Of a stretch of DNA of 24,000 nt, positions 3,136 to 24,000 are shown in pieces. The first letter of the stretch is position 1, and each line of letters begins with the position of its first letter. The notes beneath the pieces are model-generated. The model saw nothing but the letters and a program-made list of their open reading frames with translations. It had not been told where the DNA came from and did no database searches. Origin of the DNA: an uncultured Thermoplasmata archaeon (GTDB lineage Archaea; Thermoplasmatota; Thermoplasmata; SG8-5). The translations under genes were made by a program, and so were the position numbers. The stretch spans positions 62,725 through 86,724 of the forward strand of contig CAYHBA010000008.1 of the NCBI GenBank assembly GCA_964354755.1, given 5' to 3'.

Positions 3136-3831
3136 TTAATCCGCAACGACCTCGAAGCCGTCCTTGTCGAAAATAAGCGGCAGGTAATTCCTCTTGTGAT
3201 TTGTCTGGCGCATCTTCACGATGCTGAGCCACAGTTTCACGTCTGTATCGTCCCTCCTCAGGTCCAGGTGGAATATGCCGTCCGCCAGGAAATCCTCGCT
3301 GTTCCTGCAGAACTTCTGTGAGTCCTGGTCCATCTCGGTTATCAGGAACGCGGTCACCTGCATGTCCCTGAGCCATTCGAAGAAGTGGAACAGCTCCTCC
3401 CTGGGGGTCGAGAACTTGGCCATGACCTCCAGGATTGGCAGGGAGTCAATCACGACCAGGTTGATGTCCATGTTCTTCTTGAGGTTCTTCAGGTACATCT
3501 TGAAAACCTCCATCCATGTCTGGTTGGTCAATTGGACGAGCTTCTTCCGTATCATCCCGAGGTCAAGGACGGATATTTCCTTTTCCAGGCCGCCGAGCTT
3601 CATGCCCAGGCCGTCCATGTTCATGAGCAGGCTCTCCCGGCTCTGCTCCAGGGTGACGTAAACGCCGTTCATGTCCTCCTTGTTGGCATTGTGGTAAAGG
3701 ATGTTGAATGCGAAGGATGATTTCATGGTGCCCGGTTTCCCGGCCACCAGGATGACGGAATTCTCCGGGATACCGCCCTGCATGACCTCGTCAAGTCCCT
3801 TCACGTATGTCTTGATGCGGTTGACTTTCAT
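3136..3831 (-). CDS. KaiC/RadA-like RecA-superfamily ATPase (single domain)
   Basis: The 231-aa product begins MKVNRIKTYVKGLDEVMQGGIPENSVILVAGKPGTMKSSFAF. It has a P-loop-like GKPGTMKS and a Walker B-like NLVVIDSL. Length and layout match archaeal KaiC-like ATPases. Confidence 0.8.
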   Translation of the reverse strand: MKVNRIKTYVKGLDEVMQGGIPENSVILVAGKPGTMKSSFAFNILYHNANKEDMNGVYVTLEQSRESLLMNMDGLGMKLGGLEKEISVLDLGMIRKKLVQLTNQTWMEVFKMYLKNLKKNMDINLVVIDSLPILEVMAKFSTPREELFHFFEWLRDMQVTAFLITEMDQDSQKFCRNSEDFLADGIFHLDLRRDDTDVKLWLSIVKMRQTNHKRNYLPLIFDKDGFEVVAD

Positions 3832-3973
3832 CTTTGTGCCCTCCGGGCCTAAACCATACCTCGTTTTATCAATATATAATTAACTGACACAAATGCATCC
3901 AATCTGCGGTGCCGGGCCCGCACAACATATATTTATACTCCGGCCGGTATCACGATTTCGAGAAGGTATCTGA

Positions 3974-8154: not shown

Positions 8155-8208
8155 ATGCGTAAAAGTTCCCCTTCAGGACCATTTCAATAACGTTGGAGTC
8201 GTTGTAAA

Positions 8209-8280
8209 GGCCCCGTACAGATATTTGGCTTCACTGACAGCTATATCCAAACAATAGCCAAATATTGGACGGGGCTACGA
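8209..8280 (-). repeat. H1: 72-nt acceptor-stem-mimic hairpin element downstream of tRNA-Gln
   Basis: The minus-strand sequence is TCGTAGCCCCGTCCAATATTTGGCT-[25-nt loop]-AGCCAAATATCTGTACGGGGCC. The outer stem GCCCCGT/ACGGGGC matches the tRNA-Gln acceptor stem, and the inner stem is 10 bp. It is 52/72 identical to H2. Confidence 0.65.
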
Positions 8281-8302
8281 CTAAAAACGATAAAAATCGG
8301 AG

Positions 8303-8374
8303 TAGCCCCGTCCAGATTCGAACTGGAGTCTGGAGATCCAGAGTCTCTAATGATAACCACTACACCACGGGGCT
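8303..8374 (-). tRNA. tRNA-Gln (anticodon CUG), 72 nt, no encoded CCA
   Basis: Manual cloverleaf. Acceptor stem AGCCCCG/CGGGGCT (A1-U72) with discriminator A. D-arm GTGT-AGTGGTTA-TCAT. Anticodon arm AGAGA-CTCTGGA-TCTCC, with one mismatch at 27-43. The variable loop is 4 nt. T-arm TCCAG-TTCGAAT-CTGGA. Confidence 0.9.
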
Positions 8375-8402: not shown

Positions 8403-8418
8403 CCATATTAAGCTTTTT
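8403..8418 (-). promoter_or_regulatory. TATA-box promoter of tRNA-Gln (AAAAAGCTTAATATGG on the minus strand)
   Basis: The TTAATAT box ends 30 nt upstream of the mature tRNA 5' end. The tRNA-Phe promoter in this window has the same box and the same spacing. Confidence 0.55.
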
Positions 8419-8432
8419 GAATCTTTCTGCAA

Positions 8433-8504
8433 AGCCCCGGACAGATTTTCGGCTTCACTGGAATCATTTTGGAAGCAATAGCCGAAAACAGGGCGGGACT
8501 GCGA
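8433..8504 (-). repeat. H2: second 72-nt acceptor-stem-mimic hairpin element
   Basis: The minus-strand sequence is TCGCAGTCCCGCCCTGTTTTCGGCT-[25-nt loop]-AGCCGAAAATCTGTCCGGGGCT. Two base pairs of the inner stem differ from H1 by compensatory changes (U-A to C-G, A-U to U-A). Confidence 0.65.
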
Positions 8505-8541
8505 ATGCAATCAGAGAAAAAACAGAGATGTTCCGCCCGTG

Positions 8542-8599
8542 TTCGAACTGGAGTCTGGAGATCCAGAGTCTCTAATGATAACCACTACACCACGGGGCT
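8542..8599 (-). pseudogene. Truncated tRNA-Gln copy: positions 1-58/59 identical to the intact gene, 3' end not foldable
   Basis: 8542-8600 is 100% identical to 8317-8375. After the T-loop TTCGAA the sequence is CACGGGCGGAAC instead of TCTGGACGGGGCTA, so neither the T-stem nor the acceptor stem can form. A T6 run follows (rc of 8517-8522). Confidence 0.75.
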
Positions 8600-9519: not shown

Positions 9520-11208
9520 ATGGATTGGAACGACCCGAAATACGACGAGCTGGCCAAGCAGGATTTCCTCAGGGCGGAAATCGTTGCGGACCTCAGGGCC
9601 GGGAAATATGAAAGAGTGCACACCAGGTTCCCGCCTGAGCCGAACGGCTACATCCACATCGGCAACGCCAAGGCCATATGGCTCAACTACTGCATAGCCA
9701 GGGACTTCGGGGGAAAGTTCAACCTGCGGTTCGACGACACCAACCCAGTGAAGGAGGAGAAGGAATTCATCGATTCCATCATCAGGGACGTGGCATGGCT
9801 GGGCGCGGACTGCGAGGGCCGCGTATTCTACGCCAGCGACTATTTCCAGCAGATGTACGACTGGGCCAGGGACCTCATCAAGAAAGGGAAGGCCTATGTC
9901 GACGACCTGAGCGCGGACGAGATAAGCCAGCACCGCGGCAATCTCACGACGCCGGGAAGGGACAGCCCTTTCCGCGACAGGTCGGTTGAGGATAATCTGG
10001 ACCTGTTCACGCGAATGAAGGGGGGCGATTTCCCGGACGGAGCCAAGGTCCTGAGGGCCAAGATAGACATGGCCCACCCCAACATGAACATGCGCGATCC
10101 GCTTATGTACCGCATAATCCACGCCCCGCACCCGCATGCCGGGGACAGGTGGTGCATCTATCCGATTTACGACTGGGCTCACGGCCTGGAGGATTCGATA
10201 GAGGGAATAACCCATTCCATGTGCTCCATAGAATTCGAGAACCACAGGCCGCTGTACGACTGGTTCCTCATCGAGCTGGGCATATACAAGCCAAGGCAGA
10301 TAGAGTTCGCCAGGATGAACGTCTCTTACACCATCATGAGCAAGAGGTACCTCAAGGTGCTGGTCGAGGAGAACCGCATGAGCGGCTGGGACGACCCCAG
10401 GATGCCCACGATCTCGGGGATGAGGAGGAGGGGGTATCCGGCAACAGCAATACAGGACTTTCTGACCCGCGCGGGCATCGCCAAGAAGGCCAACACCATC
10501 GCGTTCGAGCTGCTGGAGAGCTGCGTCAGGGAGGAGCTCAACAGGACTGCGCCGAGGCTCATGGGCGTGCTCAACCCCCTAAAGATAGTCGTCGAAAACC
10601 TGCCCGAGGGCCATGTTGAAGAGATGGAGGCCATCAACAATCCAGAGAACCCGAAGGCAGGGACCAGGAAAGTGCTGTTCACCAGGGAGCTTTACATCGA
10701 AAGAGAGGATTTCATGGAAGTGCCTGAGAAGAAATTCTACAGACTGGCGCCGGGCAAGGAAGTTAGGCTGAGGTACGCCTACCTGCTCACATGCGACTCC
10801 ACGGTCAAGGATTCTGCCGGAAAAATAACGGAGCTCAGGGGCCATGTGGACCCGGCCTCCAGGGGCGGCAACGCCCCGGACAGCAGGAAGGTCAAGAGCA
10901 CGATGCACTGGGTCTCCGCGACCAAATCCGTCACGGCCGAGGTCAGGCTCTACGATAAACTGTTCACCTGCGAGGACCTTTCCGACCAGCCAGGCAAGTT
11001 CCAGGACTACCTGAATCCTGACTCGCTGAAGGTGCTGGAGGGCTGCAGGATGGAGCCGGCCGCGGCCGGGCTGAAGGCCGGAGACAGGGTGCAGCTGGAG
11101 AGGCTGGGGTATTTCTGCGTGGACAAAGACACAGAACTTGGCAAATTAGTGCTTAACAGGACAGTTGGCCTGAAAGACACCTGGGCTAAGGTACAGGGAC
11201 AATCATAA
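9520..11208 (+). CDS. glnS: Glutamine--tRNA ligase (bacterial-type GlnRS)
   Basis: The 562-aa product is collinear with E. coli GlnRS as I recall it. Shared motifs are VHTRFPPEPNGYIHIGNAK (HIGH region), NLRFDDTNP, CIYPIYDWAHG, TIMSKRYL (KMSKS), WDDPRMPTISGMRRRGY and the C-terminal NRTVGLKDTWAKV. GGTGA lies upstream of the ATG. Confidence 0.9.
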   Translation: MDWNDPKYDELAKQDFLRAEIVADLRAGKYERVHTRFPPEPNGYIHIGNAKAIWLNYCIARDFGGKFNLRFDDTNPVKEEKEFIDSIIRDVAWLGADCEGRVFYASDYFQQMYDWARDLIKKGKAYVDDLSADEISQHRGNLTTPGRDSPFRDRSVEDNLDLFTRMKGGDFPDGAKVLRAKIDMAHPNMNMRDPLMYRIIHAPHPHAGDRWCIYPIYDWAHGLEDSIEGITHSMCSIEFENHRPLYDWFLIELGIYKPRQIEFARMNVSYTIMSKRYLKVLVEENRMSGWDDPRMPTISGMRRRGYPATAIQDFLTRAGIAKKANTIAFELLESCVREELNRTAPRLMGVLNPLKIVVENLPEGHVEEMEAINNPENPKAGTRKVLFTRELYIEREDFMEVPEKKFYRLAPGKEVRLRYAYLLTCDSTVKDSAGKITELRGHVDPASRGGNAPDSRKVKSTMHWVSATKSVTAEVRLYDKLFTCEDLSDQPGKFQDYLNPDSLKVLEGCRMEPAAAGLKAGDRVQLERLGYFCVDKDTELGKLVLNRTVGLKDTWAKVQGQS

Positions 11209-11258: not shown

Positions 11259-14200
11259 ATGAAAAACCTGGTTGCAGTCGGAGTGTGTGCATTGTTGGTT
11301 TTAAGCGGCACGGTTCCATTGACAAGCGTTGCCCATAACGATTTACTGGCGAATGATGATGTCGCGAATCCGGCGCCCGCCTATTTCTCTCCGGATGAAA
11401 TCAAAGCAGGACCGCTCAATGACGAACTGAAAATAGCGCTTCAAGACGACATGATGGACATGAACCTATGGAATCCGGACACCAATTCGATATGGAAAAC
11501 CGACCAGCTCCAGTACAATTTCGAAGGCCTGATGGCCTTCAATCCGGACTTCGAGCTCTATCCGGTCCTGGCCGGGGAAAACCCCACAGGCCCCAATGGC
11601 GCCGATGCATGGGTGAGCGGAGATGGAATGCAGATTTCCATCAACCTGAGGCAGGACGCCGCGTTCACGGACGGGAAGCCCTTCACATCTATGGATGTGG
11701 TTTTTTCCTATCAGACAGCTGGATGGGATATTTATGCTTCGAACGTCTTGAACCCGCTCTACCATTGGGACGGGACCTTTGCCAAGTATGACGGCGGAAC
11801 GAGCCACATCGGGGTCGAAGCGAACGGGACGTACAGGGTCGATTTTTTCCTAGAAAACCCGTATTCGATGTTCTGGTACCAGACACTCTCGATGCCCATC
11901 TGCCCCTGGCATATCTGGCAGAACCATACAGTTTCACTGGACCCTGGAATGCATCCCGGATATAACGTGACCGGGGAGTCGGGGTTGGACTACTGGTACG
12001 GCAACAGCCTCTCGGAAACAGATGCGACCATCGGCACAGGGCCTTTCTACCTTGAATCCTGGGCTCTGGGCAATGGCTCGGTCGTAAAAGCCTATGGGGA
12101 TTACTGGAACAAGAACGGCACTGTGTCCTGCGGAGGGGAAGAATATCCGTGCTACCCGAAGCAAGTGAGGACCATCATATTCGAGATAATCCCACAACTA
12201 GACGATTCTGTAGCTGCGCTCAGAAACGGTTCGGTGCATCATATTGCGGCATCGCTTTCCCCAGCTTATTACAACATGATGAAAATCGATCCGAACATCG
12301 GATTCGAGACGCCTGACAGCGATGGATTTTTCTACATATGCTTCAACCTGAGAAAGGGAGCCATGACCGATGTTAATTTCCGCAGGGCCGTCGCGTACTG
12401 CGTGGACAAGGATTACATCGTTGACAATATCATGGACGGGTACGGCTCACCGGGAAGCGTGCCAATCTCGATCACATCCCAGATTTACGTGAACACGTCC
12501 GTGCCTGACTGGATTGCCGAGGGTAACCTGACGAAGGCGATGATGCTCCTGGATGCATCCGGATATGTTGATTACGACGGCGACGGCTGGAGGGATATGC
12601 CCGACCATTCGCCGCTCAGATACGACATACTCACGCCGCCGATGGATTACGACCCGGTACGGGCTAACGCCGGAATCCTCATCGAATCGAAGCTCAGGGC
12701 CGTCGGGCTTAATGTGGCCTCAGTGCCAACAGATTTCGACACAATTGTTAGTTCCGGATACGTGTCCCTCGATTTCGACATGTTCATCCTTGGATGGAGC
12801 GTGGGCTTGTTCCCGGAAACGTACCTGTGGGACTTCTTCCACGGGGATTCTGATATAGCCCTCAACCCATATGGCACAAATGCCGCTGGATATCACAACG
12901 CTTCCGTTGACAGCATGATCGATGCCCTGCAAACCGAGATGGACAACGATGCCAGAGCACAGTTGGTAAAAGACATCTGCGGCGCGACTATGATGGATGT
13001 AGTCTATGACACTCTATATTACAAGAAGGGCATCGAGGCTTACCTGCAGGATGCCTGGCAAGGTTGGCTGCCGGTCCTCGGGTCGATTTACAACAGATTC
13101 TCCGTGTGCAATTTGACGCCACCCAGCTACCTTTATCCGTCATACGGCAATCTGGAGGTCGGCGTTTATGTGCCCGACAACATCCGTGCGGGCGCGAACC
13201 GCACATGCTATGTCCTAGTGACGGACAACGACCAACCAGTCGACAACGCCCATATAGTCGTGCAGACCAACCTGGGAGTCACACTTGACGGATATACCAA
13301 CTTGGGCGGTTGCGTGGAATTCGATTATCATGTCCCGTTTGCGGAGGGCCAAGCCTTCTTCTCGGCGAACGCAACCAAGGGAGTGGACACAGGCGGGGCG
13401 TTCAAGGTTTCTTCCCTGTTCACGGACAAGTCCTTTGCCAGTCTGAGCCTTTCGACCCAGAACGGGGTGGTCTCCCCGCTCGGGAACACCACCGTCACTG
13501 CAAGAGCCACAGACAGGGAGGGCATGGGAGTTCCAGGTGCGCTGGTTGACGTGGACACCGCCCTGCTGTTCGGCTCGGTGGATAGCGCCCAGAAGACTAC
13601 TGATAGCCTGGGATTCGCGAATTTCACATACACGGCTCCCCCGGCTAGTTACATGCCAAACTCCAACAGGTACGAGCAATTCCGCGCCTCGGTTTCCGTG
13701 GCCGACACAGTGGTCCAGGAGGTCCAGGAGGCATGCCTTGTCCTAGCCATTGCTAATAATGTAAGGGACTGGCATTCGGTGGACATCGTTAATGTGGACG
13801 ATTATGTCATCTCGGGCAACAAGGCCGGAACACTTCAGTTAACCACGGATGTCACGGTATCTGTAGTCGATGCCACCGGCGCTTCGGTCATTGGGACGAC
13901 AGTCTATGTGGACACGGACAATTCGGTTGCAATTCCGGATTCTCCGAGCCACGTCACCAATGGGGCCGGAGAGGTTGTCTTCACCCTGTCAGCGGTGGAT
14001 GGAACGACCAGCCGAAGCACTAAAGTGGATTTTCATGTAAATAAAATGTACTCGACATCGGACTGCTTCCTACTTTTGAATCACAACGAGACAGACCCGA
14101 CAGGCGGATACGCAGCGGACATAGATTTCGAAGCCAAAATTGAACATGGCTCATCCGCCACAGTGACTGCCACTGTTTACGACGAGACGGGAAATCCGGC

Positions 14201-17200
14201 CCCGGGCGTCCCATGCCAGTTCTTCATCCCGCCCACAGCGGAGGGCATACCTGGGCAGTTCCAGGGGGGAGACGAGTGGATATGGTGGGAATACGGTACC
14301 GATTGGGACTTGGGCTGGTCGGCCAGTTACATCGGCAGCTGGTACGGGAACAATGCCTCGATGACGGACGGTACCGGCAGACTTGTGGCTACGATTTCCA
14401 CGCCCTCGTTTATAGCCGATACGCTGATACCTCTGGAATTCGGCATCGGTGGCTACTGGGTGACAGAGACGTTCAACAAGACTGCTAACAACTGGTGGAT
14501 GGAGGACTATGGAGATTCTGGCAATTGGGTTCCGCCGACCACAGATTGGTCAGACGGGAATTATTACTGGCGAGCCGCCGACTTCACCCTGGTCGACTCC
14601 GCAATCCTCTGGAGGGGACCGGCCGCGACCATGACCGATGTTAACCTGGGCGCACCATACCTTTCCTCCGAGGACCAAACCGGAACAATCACCATGACAT
14701 TCCAGAATGAGAGCGGCGCATTGGCGAATTCCAATGTCAAGATTTCCGAGGGAATAGCAAATCCCCCGCTGCTTGACGAAGGGCCGACGGATGGCGCAGG
14801 AATGAGGAGTTATCTTTATGATTCCGGAACCGGCCAGTTCGACGCCGGAATGGGATTCACTTCCATGGTGACTGAACCGGGATACTCACAGTTCCCGTTC
14901 ACATTCTATCTGCCATACGTTAATCTGCCAGACAAATGTATCCTCACTGTGGAACCTTCCGCGAAATTGGTCGCGCCCAACGGAACAGTGAATTTCACAG
15001 CCAGGTTGACGGACATCTTCGGAATCCCGATAGCCGGAGCCACAATCTGGGCGGGAACCCTGTCCAACACCACGGACGCCCTGGGAATCGCGGGATTCTC
15101 GAAAACATTGGCAGGTGCAGGCATCCAGAACACAAGCTTCACCGTGACCTTCGGAGGCAAGACCGGGAGTATGACAGCTGGTGTCATAGTGGGGGAGGTG
15201 TTTTCACTGACAACACACTTGCCCATCCGCATCAACTCCAACGCGGACTTCGACGAGGCGCACGGGGTAGTGAACTGGGCGACGGGGAACGGGACGCAGG
15301 GGAACCCCTGGATAATCGAGGGCTGGGATGTTAACGGGACTGGGTATGGATATTGCATTTATATTGGGAACACGACTGAGCATTTCATCGTGAGTAATTG
15401 TTATCTGCATGAGGCAAGTGGTTTCATGTCTCCCTTTTACTTCTTCAATCAGGGACTAATATTGTATCATACAACGAATGGAACTATCGAGAATATTATC
15501 GCTTATGGAAACGGTTTAGGCGTTCAACTGTGTTACTCACCAGGAAATGATGTTATCAACAATTCAGTGATTTCGAATGTGAATGAGGGGATATGGATTC
15601 ATGATTCCAGAGATGTTTTAGTGAGTGGCAACAATGTAACTTCCAACGAATACGGTATTGATATCACTATCTCTGACGGTGCCTTTGTTGTGAATAATAC
15701 AGCCTCCAACAATAATGTTGGCATATCTGCATCCCAGAGTGATGCGATCATAGTAAACAATATAGCCACCATGAATTTAGAAAGTGGAATTTCTGTCGGT
15801 GGTCCAGATAGTATTTACTTTATTAATAATAACACGATTTCAATGAACAATATCGGCATCACGCTGAGTGGAACAATCGGGGTTACCGTCAAGGATAATG
15901 CAATGCTCGGGAACAGCATGTTTATCTCCGGTGTTCTGGAACACTGGAACTCACATGATATCGATGTAACCAACACTGTCAACGGCAAACCAGTCCGATA
16001 TTGGAAGAATCAAGTTGGCGGAACCGTGCCCCCGGGCGCGGGACAGGTCATATTGGCGAATTGCATGAATGTCACGGTCGAGGGCCAGAATCTAATCAAC
16101 GGCTCGGTCGGAATATTGATGGGGCTCTCTGTAAACAATATAATTACCGACAATAACGCATCCTTAAATAATTTAGCTGGCATATACATGAATTTCCACT
16201 GCAACGGGAACCTCATCACCGGCAACATAGTATCAAATAATTATGACGGCATCTGCATGGACCCCTTATGCGATGGTAACACAATATCCAACAATACTGC
16301 AAATTCGAATTCCAGGTCTAGTATCTACCTCTTGGTTTCTGATGATAATGTTATTTGTGACAACGTTATTTCCAACTCGGGGATCGGCGTATATCTATAT
16401 GTGTCTGAATATAATATTATCGCTCGGAATACCTTTTTATACAATGGCTTTGGAATCTATTCATATATTGCGAGTCTTAATAAAATAAATCATAATAATT
16501 TCATTAACAACACAGAACAAGCGTTCGACGAAGATTACAACCAATGGGACGACGGCTACCCCTCAGGTGGCAATTACTGGTCTGACTACAACGGAACTGA
16601 TGCGTATTCCGGTCCTGGCCAGAACGAATCCGGTTCAGACGGCATCGGGGATACGCCTTATTTGTTCACGGGCGATCAGGACAACTATCCATTGATGACA
16701 CCCTGGACCCCCCCTGTACTTCTGGAGTTCACCATCCCTCTCTCCCCCGGCTGGAACCTCGTCTCAATCCCCCTGGAAATGGCCTCGACAGACATATCCA
16801 CAGCCCTGGCTTCCATTTCTGGCCAGTACGATGTAGTGAAATATTATTCGAGCACCGACGCTTCCGACCCCTGGAAAACCTACCGGCCAGGGAGCCCGAC
16901 GAACGATCTTGCGAGCATAGACAGGACCATGGGCCTGTGGATACACGGGACAGCCTACTGTAATCTGACCGTGACAGGCGAAATTCCAGCCACCACCCAG
17001 ATTCTTCTCCACGCCGGATGGAACCTTGTCGGCTACCCATCCATGACTGAGCAAACAGTGGCCAATGCCCTCTGGGGCACCGGGGCCTACATGGTCGAGG
17101 CCTTCGACCCAGGTTCTCCCTACCTGATATCCGAGATAGGGCCGACATACATGATGAAGCCGGGGGAAGGGTACTGGATACATGTTCCCGCTGACACGGT

Positions 17201-17219
17201 TTGGACTGTGAATTGGTAA
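11259..17219 (+). CDS. Giant (1986 aa) secreted surface glycoprotein: signal peptide, family-5 solute-binding (OppA/DppA-like) domain, Ig-like domains, NosD-type parallel beta-helix repeats, duplicated C-terminal GWNLV module
   Basis: Signal peptide MKNLVAVGVCALLVLSGTVPLTSVA. Residues about 50-620 look SBP_bac_5-like (FYICFNLRKGAMTDVNFRRAVAYCVDKDYIV). Residues about 625-1315 hold several Big/invasin-like segments. Residues about 1318-1760 are PbH1-type repeats (NNTISMNNIGITLSG, ITGNIVSNNYDGICM), followed by GIGDTPY...DNYPL. I counted 38 N-X-S/T sequons by eye. There is no C-terminal TM segment. Confidence 0.85.
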   Translation: MKNLVAVGVCALLVLSGTVPLTSVAHNDLLANDDVANPAPAYFSPDEIKAGPLNDELKIALQDDMMDMNLWNPDTNSIWKTDQLQYNFEGLMAFNPDFELYPVLAGENPTGPNGADAWVSGDGMQISINLRQDAAFTDGKPFTSMDVVFSYQTAGWDIYASNVLNPLYHWDGTFAKYDGGTSHIGVEANGTYRVDFFLENPYSMFWYQTLSMPICPWHIWQNHTVSLDPGMHPGYNVTGESGLDYWYGNSLSETDATIGTGPFYLESWALGNGSVVKAYGDYWNKNGTVSCGGEEYPCYPKQVRTIIFEIIPQLDDSVAALRNGSVHHIAASLSPAYYNMMKIDPNIGFETPDSDGFFYICFNLRKGAMTDVNFRRAVAYCVDKDYIVDNIMDGYGSPGSVPISITSQIYVNTSVPDWIAEGNLTKAMMLLDASGYVDYDGDGWRDMPDHSPLRYDILTPPMDYDPVRANAGILIESKLRAVGLNVASVPTDFDTIVSSGYVSLDFDMFILGWSVGLFPETYLWDFFHGDSDIALNPYGTNAAGYHNASVDSMIDALQTEMDNDARAQLVKDICGATMMDVVYDTLYYKKGIEAYLQDAWQGWLPVLGSIYNRFSVCNLTPPSYLYPSYGNLEVGVYVPDNIRAGANRTCYVLVTDNDQPVDNAHIVVQTNLGVTLDGYTNLGGCVEFDYHVPFAEGQAFFSANATKGVDTGGAFKVSSLFTDKSFASLSLSTQNGVVSPLGNTTVTARATDREGMGVPGALVDVDTALLFGSVDSAQKTTDSLGFANFTYTAPPASYMPNSNRYEQFRASVSVADTVVQEVQEACLVLAIANNVRDWHSVDIVNVDDYVISGNKAGTLQLTTDVTVSVVDATGASVIGTTVYVDTDNSVAIPDSPSHVTNGAGEVVFTLSAVDGTTSRSTKVDFHVNKMYSTSDCFLLLNHNETDPTGGYAADIDFEAKIEHGSSATVTATVYDETGNPAPGVPCQFFIPPTAEGIPGQFQGGDEWIWWEYGTDWDLGWSASYIGSWYGNNASMTDGTGRLVATISTPSFIADTLIPLEFGIGGYWVTETFNKTANNWWMEDYGDSGNWVPPTTDWSDGNYYWRAADFTLVDSAILWRGPAATMTDVNLGAPYLSSEDQTGTITMTFQNESGALANSNVKISEGIANPPLLDEGPTDGAGMRSYLYDSGTGQFDAGMGFTSMVTEPGYSQFPFTFYLPYVNLPDKCILTVEPSAKLVAPNGTVNFTARLTDIFGIPIAGATIWAGTLSNTTDALGIAGFSKTLAGAGIQNTSFTVTFGGKTGSMTAGVIVGEVFSLTTHLPIRINSNADFDEAHGVVNWATGNGTQGNPWIIEGWDVNGTGYGYCIYIGNTTEHFIVSNCYLHEASGFMSPFYFFNQGLILYHTTNGTIENIIAYGNGLGVQLCYSPGNDVINNSVISNVNEGIWIHDSRDVLVSGNNVTSNEYGIDITISDGAFVVNNTASNNNVGISASQSDAIIVNNIATMNLESGISVGGPDSIYFINNNTISMNNIGITLSGTIGVTVKDNAMLGNSMFISGVLEHWNSHDIDVTNTVNGKPVRYWKNQVGGTVPPGAGQVILANCMNVTVEGQNLINGSVGILMGLSVNNIITDNNASLNNLAGIYMNFHCNGNLITGNIVSNNYDGICMDPLCDGNTISNNTANSNSRSSIYLLVSDDNVICDNVISNSGIGVYLYVSEYNIIARNTFLYNGFGIYSYIASLNKINHNNFINNTEQAFDEDYNQWDDGYPSGGNYWSDYNGTDAYSGPGQNESGSDGIGDTPYLFTGDQDNYPLMTPWTPPVLLEFTIPLSPGWNLVSIPLEMASTDISTALASISGQYDVVKYYSSTDASDPWKTYRPGSPTNDLASIDRTMGLWIHGTAYCNLTVTGEIPATTQILLHAGWNLVGYPSMTEQTVANALWGTGAYMVEAFDPGSPYLISEIGPTYMMKPGEGYWIHVPADTVWTVNW

Positions 17220-21777: not shown

Positions 21778-22917
21778 TCAGCGCAGGCATTCTCGCGCTA
21801 TGACCATTCTCTGGATTTCAGAGGTGCCCTCGTATATCTCCGTAATCTTTGCCTCGCGGAAGAACCGCTCGACAGCGTAATCCTTGGTGTAGCCGTAGCC
21901 CCCGTGAATCTGAAGGGCGTTGTTCGCAACTTCGACCGCAATCCTCGAGGCGTACAGCTTGGCCATGGCGCTCTCCTTTGACAGTTTCTGGCCTGTGTCG
22001 CTCAGGTATGCGGCCCTGAGCACGAGGAACCTTGCGGCAGCCACTTTCGTGGCCATCTCTGCCAGCATCCACTGTATCGCCTGGAATTTCCCTATGGGCT
22101 TGCCGAACTGCTCCCTCTCCTTTGCGTATTTCACGGCCTCATCCAGCGCACCCTGGGCTATACCCACTGCCTGGGCCGCTATGCCTATCCTGCTGCCGTC
22201 CAGGGTCATCATGCCGATTCTGAAGCCCGCGTTCAGCTCGCCCAGCATGTTCTCCCTCGGAATCGGGCAGTTCTCGAACACCAGTTCCGACGTGGCCGAC
22301 GCGCGCACGCCCATCTTGTCCTCGATAGTGCCGTAGGTGAAGCCGGGCGTTCCCTTCTCCACCAGGAATGCAGTGAGCCCCTTCGTTCCTTTCGAGGGCT
22401 CGGTCGAGGCAATGACCAGTACGACATCGGCCTCGCAGCCGGACGTGATGAATATTTTATTTCCATTTAAAATATAATTATCACCATCTAATATTGCCGT
22501 GGTCCTCACGGCTCCGGCGTCCGAACCAGCGCTCGGTTCGGTCAGTGCGAAGGCGCCCAGCTTCAGTCCCTTCGCCAGGGGTCTGAGGAATCTCTCCTTC
22601 TGGGCATCGGTGCCGAAGCGGTAAATCGGATGGCAGCAGACAGAGTTGTGCACGGCCATTATCACGCTCGTGGAGCCGCACACCCTAGCCAGCTCCTCGA
22701 TTGCCAGCATGTAGGATACAGAATCCGAGCCTGAGCCGCCCCATTCGCGGGGGACTGCCATGCCCAAGAGATTGAGCTGCCCCATCTTCTTCAGTATGGG
22801 CCACGGGAAATTCCCCTTTGCGTCCATTTCCTGTGCGACGGGTTTAATTTCCTTCTCGGCGAAATCCCTGACCATGGACCGGACCATGAGCTGCTCCTTG
22901 GAAAGGTCGAAGTTCAT
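21778..22917 (-). CDS. Acyl-CoA dehydrogenase (short/medium-chain type)
   Basis: The ORF opens at 22968, but the conserved start is MNFDLSKEQLMVRSMVRDFAEKEI (ATG at 22917-22915). ACAD motifs are present: GAFALTEPSAGSD, YILNGNKIFITSG, QIHGGYGYTKDYAVERFFREAKITEIYEGTSEIQ. Confidence 0.88.
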   Translation of the reverse strand: MNFDLSKEQLMVRSMVRDFAEKEIKPVAQEMDAKGNFPWPILKKMGQLNLLGMAVPREWGGSGSDSVSYMLAIEELARVCGSTSVIMAVHNSVCCHPIYRFGTDAQKERFLRPLAKGLKLGAFALTEPSAGSDAGAVRTTAILDGDNYILNGNKIFITSGCEADVVLVIASTEPSKGTKGLTAFLVEKGTPGFTYGTIEDKMGVRASATSELVFENCPIPRENMLGELNAGFRIGMMTLDGSRIGIAAQAVGIAQGALDEAVKYAKEREQFGKPIGKFQAIQWMLAEMATKVAAARFLVLRAAYLSDTGQKLSKESAMAKLYASRIAVEVANNALQIHGGYGYTKDYAVERFFREAKITEIYEGTSEIQRMVIARECLR

Positions 22918-22966
22918 CGGGCGGGAGAAACGCTGATACGTTAAAAATATTCCCAGTGCAAAAGAC

Positions 22967-22980
22967 AAAAGGTTAATATG
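22967..22980 (+). promoter_or_regulatory. TATA-box promoter of tRNA-Phe (AAAAGGTTAATATG)
   Basis: The TTAATAT box (22973-22979) lies 30 nt upstream of the tRNA 5' end. The tRNA-Gln promoter has the same box and spacing. Confidence 0.55.
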
Positions 22981-23009
22981 CGATTATCCGTTGCGCCAAT
23001 GTCCCGGAT

Positions 23010-23083
23010 GCGGTAGTAATTTAGCCTGGGTGAATGCTTGACTGAAGATCAAGATGTCGCTGGTTCAAATCCGGCCTACCGCA
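23010..23083 (+). tRNA. tRNA-Phe (anticodon GAA), 74 nt, no encoded CCA
   Basis: Manual cloverleaf. Acceptor stem GCGGTAG/CTACCGC with discriminator A. D-arm ATTT-AGCCTGGGT-GAAT. Anticodon arm CTTGA-CTGAAGA-TCAAG. Variable loop ATGTC. T-arm GCTGG-TTCAAAT-CCGGC. Confidence 0.9.
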
Positions 23084-23590
23084 CTCTGATTATTTTATGA
23101 TCAAATACGTGCGGTAGGCCTCTCACCGTCTATTGCATATTTATTGTTTCAAGTGAAGACGGCGATCCAGCCTACCGCCTGTGCAAGAGGTGGGAGTGCA
23201 CCGATATGGAGGCCTCTCTCAGCCTATTAATTCTAATATGAAAGAAGTGAAGGCTTCGATCCGACCTACCGCACTCTGATTATTTTATAATCAAATACGT
23301 GCGGTAGGCCTCTCGCCGCCTATTGTTTAGAAAATGTTTAGAGTGAAGGCAGCGATCCGGCCTACCGCCTGTGCAAGAGGTGGGAGTGCATAGATATGGA
23401 TAGGCCTCTCTCGGGTTTATTTATAAAATGCCAATAGTGAAGCCCTCGACACGGGCTAACTCACTTCGCTCGGATATGTAAAAAACGTGAGTTGGCCCTG
23501 TCTCGGCCTATCGCTTATAGAATAATAGAAATGAAGGCCTCGATCCGACCTACCGCACTCTGATTATTTTATGATCAAATACGGCGGTAA
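23057..23590 (+). repeat. Six-unit tandem array (period 94-96 nt) of hairpin units derived from the 3' end and trailer of tRNA-Phe
   Basis: Units start at about 23057 (inside the tRNA), 23153, 23247, 23343, 23437 and 23531. Shared frame: GTGAAG-N4-CGATCC-[arm]-[22-28 nt loop]-[complementary arm]-CTCTC-N4-CCTAT-[AT-rich block]. Families A (3 copies) and B (2 copies) alternate, and there is one divergent unit C. Confidence 0.85.
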
Positions 23591-23665
23591 GTCAATAATT
23601 CGACGATGTTCAAGTCCAGTTTCCATCATTCATGGACAAGGGCAATTTATAATCAGAAGCAGTCA

Positions 23666-24000
23666 TCACAATTCAGTTTGAACATATAAATATTCGCCGT
23701 TCTCCTCATTAATTATTATTTGTGCCCTATGGTAATTTTCATGTCCACCCAGATATTGCCATCCTATTGTCCAACAAAGGAGAGGGGATTCCAAGGGAAT
23801 TTCTCCACTGTAATTATTAACATCAGGAATTGATTGCTTTATTCCCAAACCCATGCCTTCCAAGGAATTTGGGTATCCCGCTACAAAATCTTTGATTTCA
23901 TCATTTTGTAGAGCCAGACTAAATAAAACTGTACTGTCCATAGTCCAATTTACAATCGGCTTGTACTCATTGTAAACGGAATCTAACGTAAAATCACCTA
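23666..24000 (-). CDS. Hypothetical protein in an AT-rich region; the reading frame stays open to the window edge, so the start is uncertain
   Basis: The track gives 23666-23941 (91 aa). The same frame continues without a stop through 23942-23998 (..GDFTLDSVYNEYKPIVNWT-MDSTVLF..). GC is about 30-40% against about 55% for the rest of the window. No motif recognised. Confidence 0.45.
   Translation of the reverse strand, partial: GDFTLDSVYNEYKPIVNWTMDSTVLFSLALQNDEIKDFVAGYPNSLEGMGLGIKQSIPDVNNYSGEIPLESPLLCWTIGWQYLGGHENYHRAQIIINEENGEYLYVQTEL

Follow-up and report, generated by a model that had tools for sequence, protein, structure and literature searches.

Among described systems, the one closest in layout to the repeats reported here is the RtT repeat of the Escherichia coli tyrT/tyrV locus. 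Four RtT elements follow one another there with a 178-nt period (133-137 bits with the Rfam model RF00391, checked here as a positive control), the 3' end of tRNA-Tyr recurs six times as a direct repeat of 21 nt, and within each unit the T-arm and acceptor region of the tRNA is present again in inverted orientation (22 nt at 86%, 10 nt exact). The function of RtT is itself poorly understood. Integron attC sites and the attP hairpin of phage CTX are folded single-strand attachment sites in which structure is conserved while sequence varies. The rtT RNA is reportedly tied to processing of the tyrT transcript and to the stringent response (bioRxiv 10.1101/2024.07.17.603846), and in archaea partial tRNA genes derived from element integration have been described in the Thermococcaceae, with inserts of 9-23 kb (PMC9897764). 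Here we analyzed a stretch of 24,000 nt from an uncultured Thermoplasmata archaeon (contig CAYHBA010000008.1, positions 62,725 to 86,724 of the forward strand; hereafter the window), in which an array of hairpin-forming units follows the tRNA-Phe gene. From our data the existence of a structured and conserved repeat family anchored on tRNAs can be regarded as established, but not the manner of its spread. We tentatively favor its being a set of lineage-specific, non-coding, DNA-level modules of ~95 bp that are anchored on the 3' end of a tRNA and whose number changes by recombination.

The modules share a common layout, consisting of the tRNA 3' end, a T-rich spacer, an inverted copy, a hairpin, and a direct partial copy of the tRNA end. 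Arm a directly repeats tRNA positions ~59-74 over 15-16 nt, and arm a' repeats the last 12 nt exactly in inverted orientation and forms hairpin H1 with a across a spacer of 22-28 nt, which is T-rich in the tRNA-proximal unit. An earlier reading of the window from its letters (hereafter the original prediction) had proposed that the tRNA-Phe 3' end forms an exact 12-bp hairpin with a 24-nt loop. This was borne out by an inverted-repeat search, as the 5' arm of the first hairpin is the last 12 nt of tRNA-Phe (arm a, GGCCTACCGCAC, 23073-23084) and is matched exactly over 12 nt by GTGCGGTAGGCC (23109-23120), 24 nt away.

The array after tRNA-Phe comprises five full units of 94-96 nt and one partial unit, with a unit defined as linker, a, loop1, a', and H2 (Table 1). 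Tandem Repeats Finder returned periods of 96 and 190 across 23069-23412, and the A-type core CCTACCGCACTCTGATTATTTTAT has three exact copies (23075, 23265, and 23549) versus none in shuffled sequence. Our unit map agrees with the predicted alternation of two families, A (U1, U3, and U6) and B (U2 and U4), with a divergent unit C (U5). It also agrees on the B units, whose H1 is bulged and weaker, with 7 and 9 Watson-Crick pairs of 12 in register, and on the re-matched arms of unit C, which pair at 12 of 12 positions including one G-U. Reading the U5 arms against the canonical arms revealed three pairing-preserving double changes and one wobble. U6 is more than a simple truncation, as it has its own, divergent a' arm, GCGGTAAGTC; by hand count its a and a' pair at 9 of 10 positions, with GAC/GTC replacing GGC/GCC.

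What the original prediction described as AT-rich "inter-unit blocks" proved to be loops, 27 nt long, that belong to a second hairpin, H2, of the form TC-X ... X'-GA. The H2 stems vary by unit yet remain complementary (e.g., CCGTC/GACGG, GCC/GGC, GGGT/GCCC, and GGCC/GGCC; in relatives GTCATC/GATGAC and GCCGCC/GGCGGC), and the loop is constant in length and conserved at its ends, TATTG and GTGAA. The three TATA-like boxes noted earlier do lie at the coordinates given for them, but they are situated inside the H2 loop and are not conserved at equivalent positions in related arrays, which argues against the promoter role that had been proposed for them. Based on this, promoter-driven small hairpin RNAs, the first explanation offered in the original prediction, appear weak, and it is very improbable that each unit is a separate small-RNA gene served by a TATA box of its own in the AT-rich block. 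AT-rich strings are indeed found 24-26 nt ahead of three hairpin arms, and the one at 23228-23240 resembles the tRNA TATA box. However, this is the best + strand match of the array to the local tRNA promoter consensus AAAGNTTAATATG and it has three mismatches and no B recognition element (BRE), whereas both real tRNA promoters have 0 mismatches; none of the three TATA-like strings is within <=2 mismatches of the consensus. Nor was a conserved BRE/TATA found ~25-30 nt upstream of each unit, as the corresponding loops of one related array (L092) and the first unit of another (L190) have no TATA-like string.

Covariation was assessed on an alignment (A1) of 11 W-type units from four genomes and two tRNA species, which also formed the basis of a covariance model, R1. 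In the two-hairpin structure 91.7% of cells are paired, versus 75.3% in shuffles, and both sides have changed in 14 of 25 pairs, so that compensatory changes extend beyond unit C. The retention of a hairpin that no longer resembles tRNA-Phe, first noted in that unit, likewise extends to the 11 units. The covariation score was 0.44 versus 0.149 in shuffles, with 0/500 of these reaching 0.44, and slid controls, which preserve relatedness, scored far lower (0.04-0.13); as the sequences are related, these are counts and not probabilities. Among ~220 scored H1 and H2 cells there were only five G-U and eight A-C. Because the pairs are nearly all Watson-Crick and G-U is not favored over A-C, there is neither tolerance of RNA-type wobbles nor a bias toward one strand, and nothing marks selection at the RNA level; comparison of the fold energies of the two strands also revealed no consistent preference.

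Arm a' forms 118 Watson-Crick pairs with the upstream a and 92 with the downstream a, with the upstream arm matched at least as well in 11 of 11 units, and therefore the pairing register of the original prediction is right. The a-loop-a' block therefore travels together, also in unit C and at the probable tRNA-Gln#1 pseudogene described below. The arms at these two sites have lost their match to any tRNA; those of unit C correspond to the end sequence GGGCTAACTCA and those of tRNA-Gln#1 to CACGGGCGGAACA. Between the window and L190, stems had changed at 1/80 positions and loops at 10/100 (p = 0.024), and between the window and a further relative, L180, loop1 differed at 11/24 positions and the H2 loop at 1/27.

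A second tRNA of the window carries the same module. ARAGORN called three tRNAs, tRNA-Phe(GAA) on the + strand and two tRNA-Gln(CTG) on the - strand, and every one of them is accompanied by the hairpin. The 3' end of the intact tRNA-Gln#2, GGACGGGGCTAC (8302-8313), is arm a of module G2. tRNA-Gln#1 is identical to #2 as far as the T-loop and then continues into a foreign, non-pairing 3' end, CACGGGCGGAAC; it also falls below the gathering score of the Rfam tRNA model and is probably a pseudogene or fragment. It has its own promoter-like region, different from that of #2. Copies of the tRNA end with three mismatches are present at 8208-8222 and 8432-8446. G1 is the same module as G2 with different arms. 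The module core is thus common to tRNA-Phe and tRNA-Gln, and the arms are specific to each tRNA.

Table 1. Features of the tRNA-Phe array and of the tRNA-Gln modules in the window.
Feature	Position	Strand	Parts	Score or remark
tRNA-Phe promoter	22968..22980	+	BRE/TATA-like AAAGGTTAATATG	0 mismatches to local tRNA promoter consensus
tRNA-Phe(GAA)	23010..23084	+		ARAGORN; Rfam tRNA 60.1 bits
Unit U1, A type	23070..23165	+	H1: a 23073-23084, T-rich loop, a' 23109-23120; H2: X 23123-23130, 27-nt loop TATTG...GTGAA, X' 23158-23165	R1 104.2 bits; H1 12/12 paired
Unit U2, B type	23166..23259	+	a 23169-23180, purine-rich loop GCAAGAGGTGGGAG, a' 23204-23214 (weak, bulged); H2: X 23217-23224, X' 23252-23259	R1 62.2 bits
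Unit U3, A type	23260..23355	+	a 23263-23274, a' 23299-23310; H2: X 23313-23320, X' 23348-23355	R1 101.1 bits
Unit U4, B type	23356..23449	+	a 23359-23370, a' 23394-23406 (bulged); H2: X 23409-23416, X' 23442-23449	R1 63 bits
Unit U5 (unit C)	23450..23543	+	a 23453-23464 GGGCTAACTCAC, a' 23487-23498 GTGAGTTGGCCC; H2: X 23501-23508, X' 23536-23543	H1 12/12 paired incl. one G-U
Partial unit U6, A type	23544..23597	+	a 23547-23558, A-type loop, divergent a'; no H2	R1 27.8 bits, E 0.00088
Relic of older L001-type module end	23601..23625	+	AATTCGACGATGTTCAAGTCC	T-loop fragment of relatives' tRNA-Phe allele
Module G2	8209..8316	-	a 8302-8313, T-rich loop, a' GTAGCCCCGTCC 8267-8278 (exact complement); H2: X 8257-8266, loop TATTG...GTGAA, X' 8221-8229, stem AATATTTGGC / GCCAAATAT; partial direct copy of tRNA end CTGTACGGGGCC 8209-8220	R1 83.1 bits; 11/11 inverted match
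tRNA-Gln(CTG) #2, intact	8302..8374	-		ARAGORN; Rfam tRNA 55.9 bits
tRNA-Gln#2 promoter	8404-8416			0 mismatches to local tRNA promoter consensus
Module G1	8433..8542	-	a GGGCGGAAC 8530-8538, a' GTCCCGCCC 8491-8499; X 8481-8489, X' 8445-8453; tRNA-Gln-like copy CTGTCCGGGGCT 8433-8444	R1 85.1 bits
tRNA-Gln(CTG) #1	8528..8599 (8527-8599 in ARAGORN)	-		ARAGORN; Rfam tRNA 20.3 bits (gathering score 29)

Related loci were reached by synteny, through homologues of the neighboring proteins (among them an acyl-CoA dehydrogenase, ACAD, and the GlnRS-type enzyme), and by one scan of metagenome DNA with the conserved tRNA-Phe leader, which returned a single locus, L092. The leader is kept in L001, L087, L092, L180, and L182. 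Every relative with this tRNA-Phe locus bears at least one module. The closest is L190 (ACAD in the same 90% cluster, identical tRNA-Phe), which has two units, one of A type followed by C, bounded by an exact 15-nt direct repeat, ATCCGGCCTACCGCA. The tRNA and leader of L190 are almost identical to those of the window, and its copy number of 2 differs from the 5.5 of the window by exactly whole units. U4, for example, is missing from L190 as a whole unit, the H2 of U3 has its counterpart in the first unit of L190, and the U5 arms are the same in both genomes, with the U5 loop differing at 4/22 positions (count by eye).

There is one unit at tRNA-Phe in L180 (ACAD 85%), one unit and a degenerate one in L182 (GlnRS 88%, syntenic with most of the window), and three units in L092, the third of which has the arms GGCCCAC / GTGGGCC, a double change with pairing retained. 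Unit types are shared across species; the window has B-type loops in common with L092 and the C unit in common with L190. Modules on the same plan but of other sizes are found at tRNA-Phe in L001-L004 (ACAD 86%), where units are ~180 nt, and in L087 (ACAD 84%), where the first is ~180 nt and the second ~80 nt. L182 is the closest relative with a recovered tRNA-Gln locus, and it has a different module there after a shared a-loop-a' block, with the same layout of T-rich spacer, a' CCCCGTCCAG, hairpin, and a perfect 24-nt direct copy of the tRNA end; the tRNA-Gln of L187 (GlnRS 78%) has the counterpart of this module.

In L087 the acceptor pair of tRNA-Phe is altered to GCGGTTG/CAACCGC and its a' tracks the change as GGTTGGCCGG, with 10 bp paired. 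The same contig has two extra tRNA-Phe 3' fragments (2262-2360, - strand) with different acceptor alleles, CCTACAGCA and CCAACCGCC, from that of the resident tRNA, CAACCGCA, which suggests that the acceptor-stem 3' strand has been replaced at least once in this lineage. The window array itself ends in a relic of an L001-type module, based on comparison with the L001 sequence ...CAATTCGGCGTCGGTTCAAGTCCG; the window's own tRNA-Phe reads TTCAAATCC there. The position of this relic suggests that newer units are those nearest tRNA-Phe. The gene past the array differs by lineage, being PEPCK, a 566-aa open reading frame (ORF), a beta-helix protein, an LTD-domain protein or, in the window, an ORF of unknown type, as expected at an insertion hot spot.

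Several lines of evidence support the DNA-level modules that we favor. Two different tRNAs of the window share the layout, each with arms of its own around a homologous core; the tRNA-Phe genes of L092, L180, L182, and L190 are followed by it as well, and other module types of the same layout accompany tRNA-Phe in L001 and L087 and the tRNA-Gln genes of L182 and L187. An action on DNA is favored by the near-pure Watson-Crick pairing, the inheritance of a-loop-a' together, the bounding repeats that resemble attachment sites, the variation of whole units between near-identical genomes, the hypervariable flanks, and the presence of a probable terminator before a'. We infer from these that propagation is driven by recombination. 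Units would enter and leave the 3' flank of the tRNA through the shared copy of the tRNA end, much as at an attachment site, by Campbell-type insertion, by unequal crossing-over between units, or by both. Arrays would then grow and shrink by whole units, with older modules displaced from the tRNA and left to decay. Selection would act on the hairpins, probably in the form of folded single-stranded or cruciform DNA that is recognized by a recombination enzyme supplied in trans.

A number of observations weigh against these modules being recombining DNA. Pfam and PHROG scans of the window ORFs identified no integrase, transposase, or HUH enzyme, and searches of viral, plasmid, and phage collections did not turn up the module. 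The viral scan gave 0 matches to the A-type core, 0 to the H1 pattern, one to the X'-linker-a pattern, which is within a phage ORF, and 86 single matches to the degenerate module pattern, in line with a rough chance estimate; blastn against the plasmid and phage collections gave no match. Model R1 returned only the known units in 379 kb of related sequence, and we found no module remote from any tRNA and saw no truly empty site. To our knowledge, a 95-bp unit is far smaller than any integrative element. In addition, the re-matching of the arms when the W-type core appeared at tRNA-Gln is left unaccounted for, arm complementarity could persist without selection through templated correction in near-palindromes, and the strong conservation of the H2 loop (1/27 between the window and L180) fits an RNA or protein-binding role equally well.

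The bounding repeats invite comparison with the attL/attR scars of integrated elements, which was the second explanation in the original prediction. A direct repeat of the 3' part of the tRNA flanks the insert (15 nt in L190 and 24 nt in L182), a tRNA fragment or pseudogene has been produced (tRNA-Gln#1), and the flank beyond is hypervariable, so this proposal is partly supported. In contrast, known elements of this kind are 9-23 kb and carry an integrase, whereas the inserts here are 95-180 nt and have no gene. Where such an element should have an integrase or recombinase and kb-sized cargo, the array has only its 94-96-nt units, and the window ORFs include no integrase; no distal copy of the tRNA end was found past the modules in L187, L190, or the window. 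Two covarying hairpins and an inverted core copy are not expected in att scars and are not explained by them.

A more specific version, which we regard as unlikely, is that the units are non-autonomous mini-elements of a previously undescribed class that insert at tRNA 3' ends by hairpin-attachment integration. The a/a' hairpin, folded in single-stranded DNA, would imitate the duplex target, and its arms could be re-matched to a new tRNA, as from Phe to Gln. The order of target copy, loop, inverted copy, second hairpin, and target copy is that which such integration would leave. The attC and CTX sites share with our units a hairpin that imitates a duplex target and head-to-tail arrays beside a fixed site, and as in attC the hairpin structure is kept while the sequence varies, with 14 pairs changing on both sides. 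Unlike them, the cargo here is just a second hairpin. The unit alignment has no R-box pair (GTTRRRY/RYYYAAC) at the feet of the hairpins and no dif-like motifs, and there is no IntI, Xer, or other recombinase gene in the window. We know of no report of attC- or CTX-type sites at tRNA 3' ends.

The resemblance to RtT raises the possibility, less probable in our judgment than the recombining modules, that the array is a trailer RNA. Read-through from the tRNA promoter would be followed by excision of units by the tRNA-processing machinery, and the a'...a helix together with H2 would mimic an acceptor/T-stem minihelix, yielding stable or regulatory small RNAs, a role that has been proposed for the rtT RNA of the E. 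coli tyrT operon. The layout is indeed that of E. coli tyrT/tyrV, where an RNA is reportedly tied to processing of the tRNA transcript; in both, tandem units lie just after a tRNA, direct copies of the tRNA 3' end bound them, an inverted copy lies within, and one unit is placed between two tandem tRNA copies, like module G1 here. The original prediction had recognized no described repeat class, and in layout RtT is one, although the sequences are unrelated. RF00391 found no match in window positions 22000-24000 at E up to 10, and Rfam gave only sub-threshold miRNA-like matches to the palindrome, with no match to any other family; the failure of RF00391 on the archaeal array indicates that the resemblance is one of layout and not of family membership. 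RtT differs further in its bacterial host, its 178-nt units as opposed to 95 nt, its inclusion of the encoded CCA, and its having no counterpart of the H2 hairpin with the TATTG...GTGAA loop. We know of no RtT at two different tRNA species with re-matched arms.

Covarying stems, conserved loop motifs, and constant loop length are also the usual mark of a structured RNA. In addition, a' reads as the acceptor 5' strand and start of the T-stem, with 7-11 of 12 positions paired to the downstream a, and an extension of H2 through TATTG/GTGAA is pairable on the tRNA-sense strand only, with 16 G-U cells. Against such an RNA are the absence of any preference for G-U over A-C, the better fit of a' to the upstream arm wherever the two differ, and the retention of H1 beside a dead tRNA-Gln copy. 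Transcription is a further obstacle. T-runs are present directly after each tRNA, in A-type loops, and in all tRNA-proximal units of relatives; they sit in the first hairpin loop and not, as had been proposed for terminators, at unit ends. Archaeal intrinsic termination requires oligo-T alone, and the T-rich spacer of the tRNA-proximal unit is therefore probably the terminator of the tRNA, which should halt the RNA polymerase before a'. It can also be argued that a' is not normally co-transcribed with the tRNA because, in the predicted fold of read-through RNA, H1 (-41.6 kcal/mol) beats the acceptor stem (-27.8 kcal/mol) by about 14 kcal/mol.

This predicted preference for H1 also bears on the third earlier explanation, a switch that sequesters the tRNA 3' strand. 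A hairpin acting in cis, by such sequestration or by aiding termination, with further units as by-products, would be energetically possible in silico and would fit both the tracking of the acceptor change by a' in L087 and the presence of the hairpin at every tRNA of the window. We nevertheless consider it improbable, as oligo-T suffices for archaeal termination, hairpins are retained in units far from the tRNA and beside the pseudogene, and H2 and the trailing copy of the tRNA end are not accounted for.

It is somewhat less improbable, but still doubtful, that the units are neutral debris, i.e., degenerate partial tRNA copies (internally deleted mini-tRNAs) produced by slippage or unequal crossing-over, whose hairpins are only leftover acceptor and T-stem complementarity. 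Consistent with this, a' equals the acceptor 5' strand and the first T-stem bases, the -1 T included, the L001-type units retain a T-arm as well as GCTTGACTGA, with which the anticodon stem of tRNA-Phe begins, the TGAAG of the H2 loop is, in our own reading, U33-GAA-G37 of tRNA-Phe, and copy number differs between close relatives. However, debris would not be expected to show many pairing-preserving double changes in the H1 and H2 stems, loops that diverge more than stems, or distinct unit types maintained across species. The tRNA-Gln modules cannot come from tRNA-Gln alone because their core has the Phe-type TGAAG, and at the place where the 5' strand of the real T-stem reads GCT, with a G-U pair, a' reads GCC and is exactly complementary.

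Other classes of element were considered and rejected. The inverted repeats of the units lie in the interior (H2) or include the target copy (H1), and the segment between tRNA-end copies starts with TCTGATTATT and ends with GAAGACGGCGA, which are not mutual inverted repeats, as would be required of a miniature inverted-repeat transposable element (MITE); a casposon-derived MITE fails for the same lack of terminal inverted repeats. The units are not tRNA genes or pseudogenes, as only the real tRNA-Phe was matched in 22000-24000 (E up to 10) and ARAGORN called none, nor a CRISPR array, as the repeated entity is the whole 94-96-nt unit, in families A, B, and C, with nothing that corresponds to a unique spacer. 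C/D-box and H/ACA RNAs were dismissed as there is no D box, no ACA box, and too small an internal loop, and a bulge-helix-bulge intron as the internal loop is 2x3 and not 3-4-3. Small ORFs (MxxVKxxIRPTA-like) were rejected since every position of the putative codons varies together with the opposite strand of the stem, and the peptides encoded by the tRNA-Gln versions would be unrelated.

Several features of the surroundings were also recorded. The window encodes a class I LysRS, KaiC, and a TrmB-like regulator, and close homologues of its ACAD and GlnRS carry Thermoplasmata or Thermoplasmatota archaeon labels. The GlnRS-type enzyme (9520-11208, + strand) lies about 1 kb from the tRNA-Gln pair; its homologues are named glutamine--tRNA ligase/YqeY domain fusion, and some (64-68% identity) are labeled Planctomycetota or Sedimentisphaerales. 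It may represent a horizontally acquired direct route of Gln charging. The following 1986-aa ORF (11259-17219, + strand) has a solute-binding protein family 5 domain and Big_1, beta-helix, and NosD repeats, and relatives have a GH18/Amidase_6 protein in its place. Past the array, positions 23669-24000 (- strand) encode the C-terminal 110 aa of an ORF that leaves the window and has no Pfam or PHROG match; relatives have unrelated genes there. On the 3' side of tRNA-Gln, L187 (649-6329) has an AbiEi/AbiEii pair, an AAA ATPase (DUF4143), and a NosD-like gene that are absent from L182 and the window. In the L089/L090 lineage tRNA-Phe is not adjacent to ACAD, and the upstream intergenic region (3790-3960 in both) has short tandem repeats, ttttagattttagattttagatatttgcaggaata twice and runs of caatctacaat. 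A scan of contigs with ACAD gave, among the matches listed, only distant paralogues (<=63% identity) with no tRNA nearby.

Should the modules prove mobile or recombinogenic, no smaller element that lands on a tRNA 3' end would be known, and a hairpin that copies its own target would be an unusual means of site recognition. If instead they are processed RNAs, tRNA-linked repeats of the RtT type would extend from the enterobacteria to the archaea, and two tRNA species and several lineages would be offered for comparison. Either way, the flanks of tRNA genes in archaeal metagenome-assembled genomes need to be read differently, as the modules create tRNA fragments, yield at least one false tRNA call (tRNA-Gln#1), and mark hypervariable insertion hot spots. 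They could also replace the acceptor-stem 3' strand of a tRNA, as illustrated by the changed acceptor pair and matching a' of L087.

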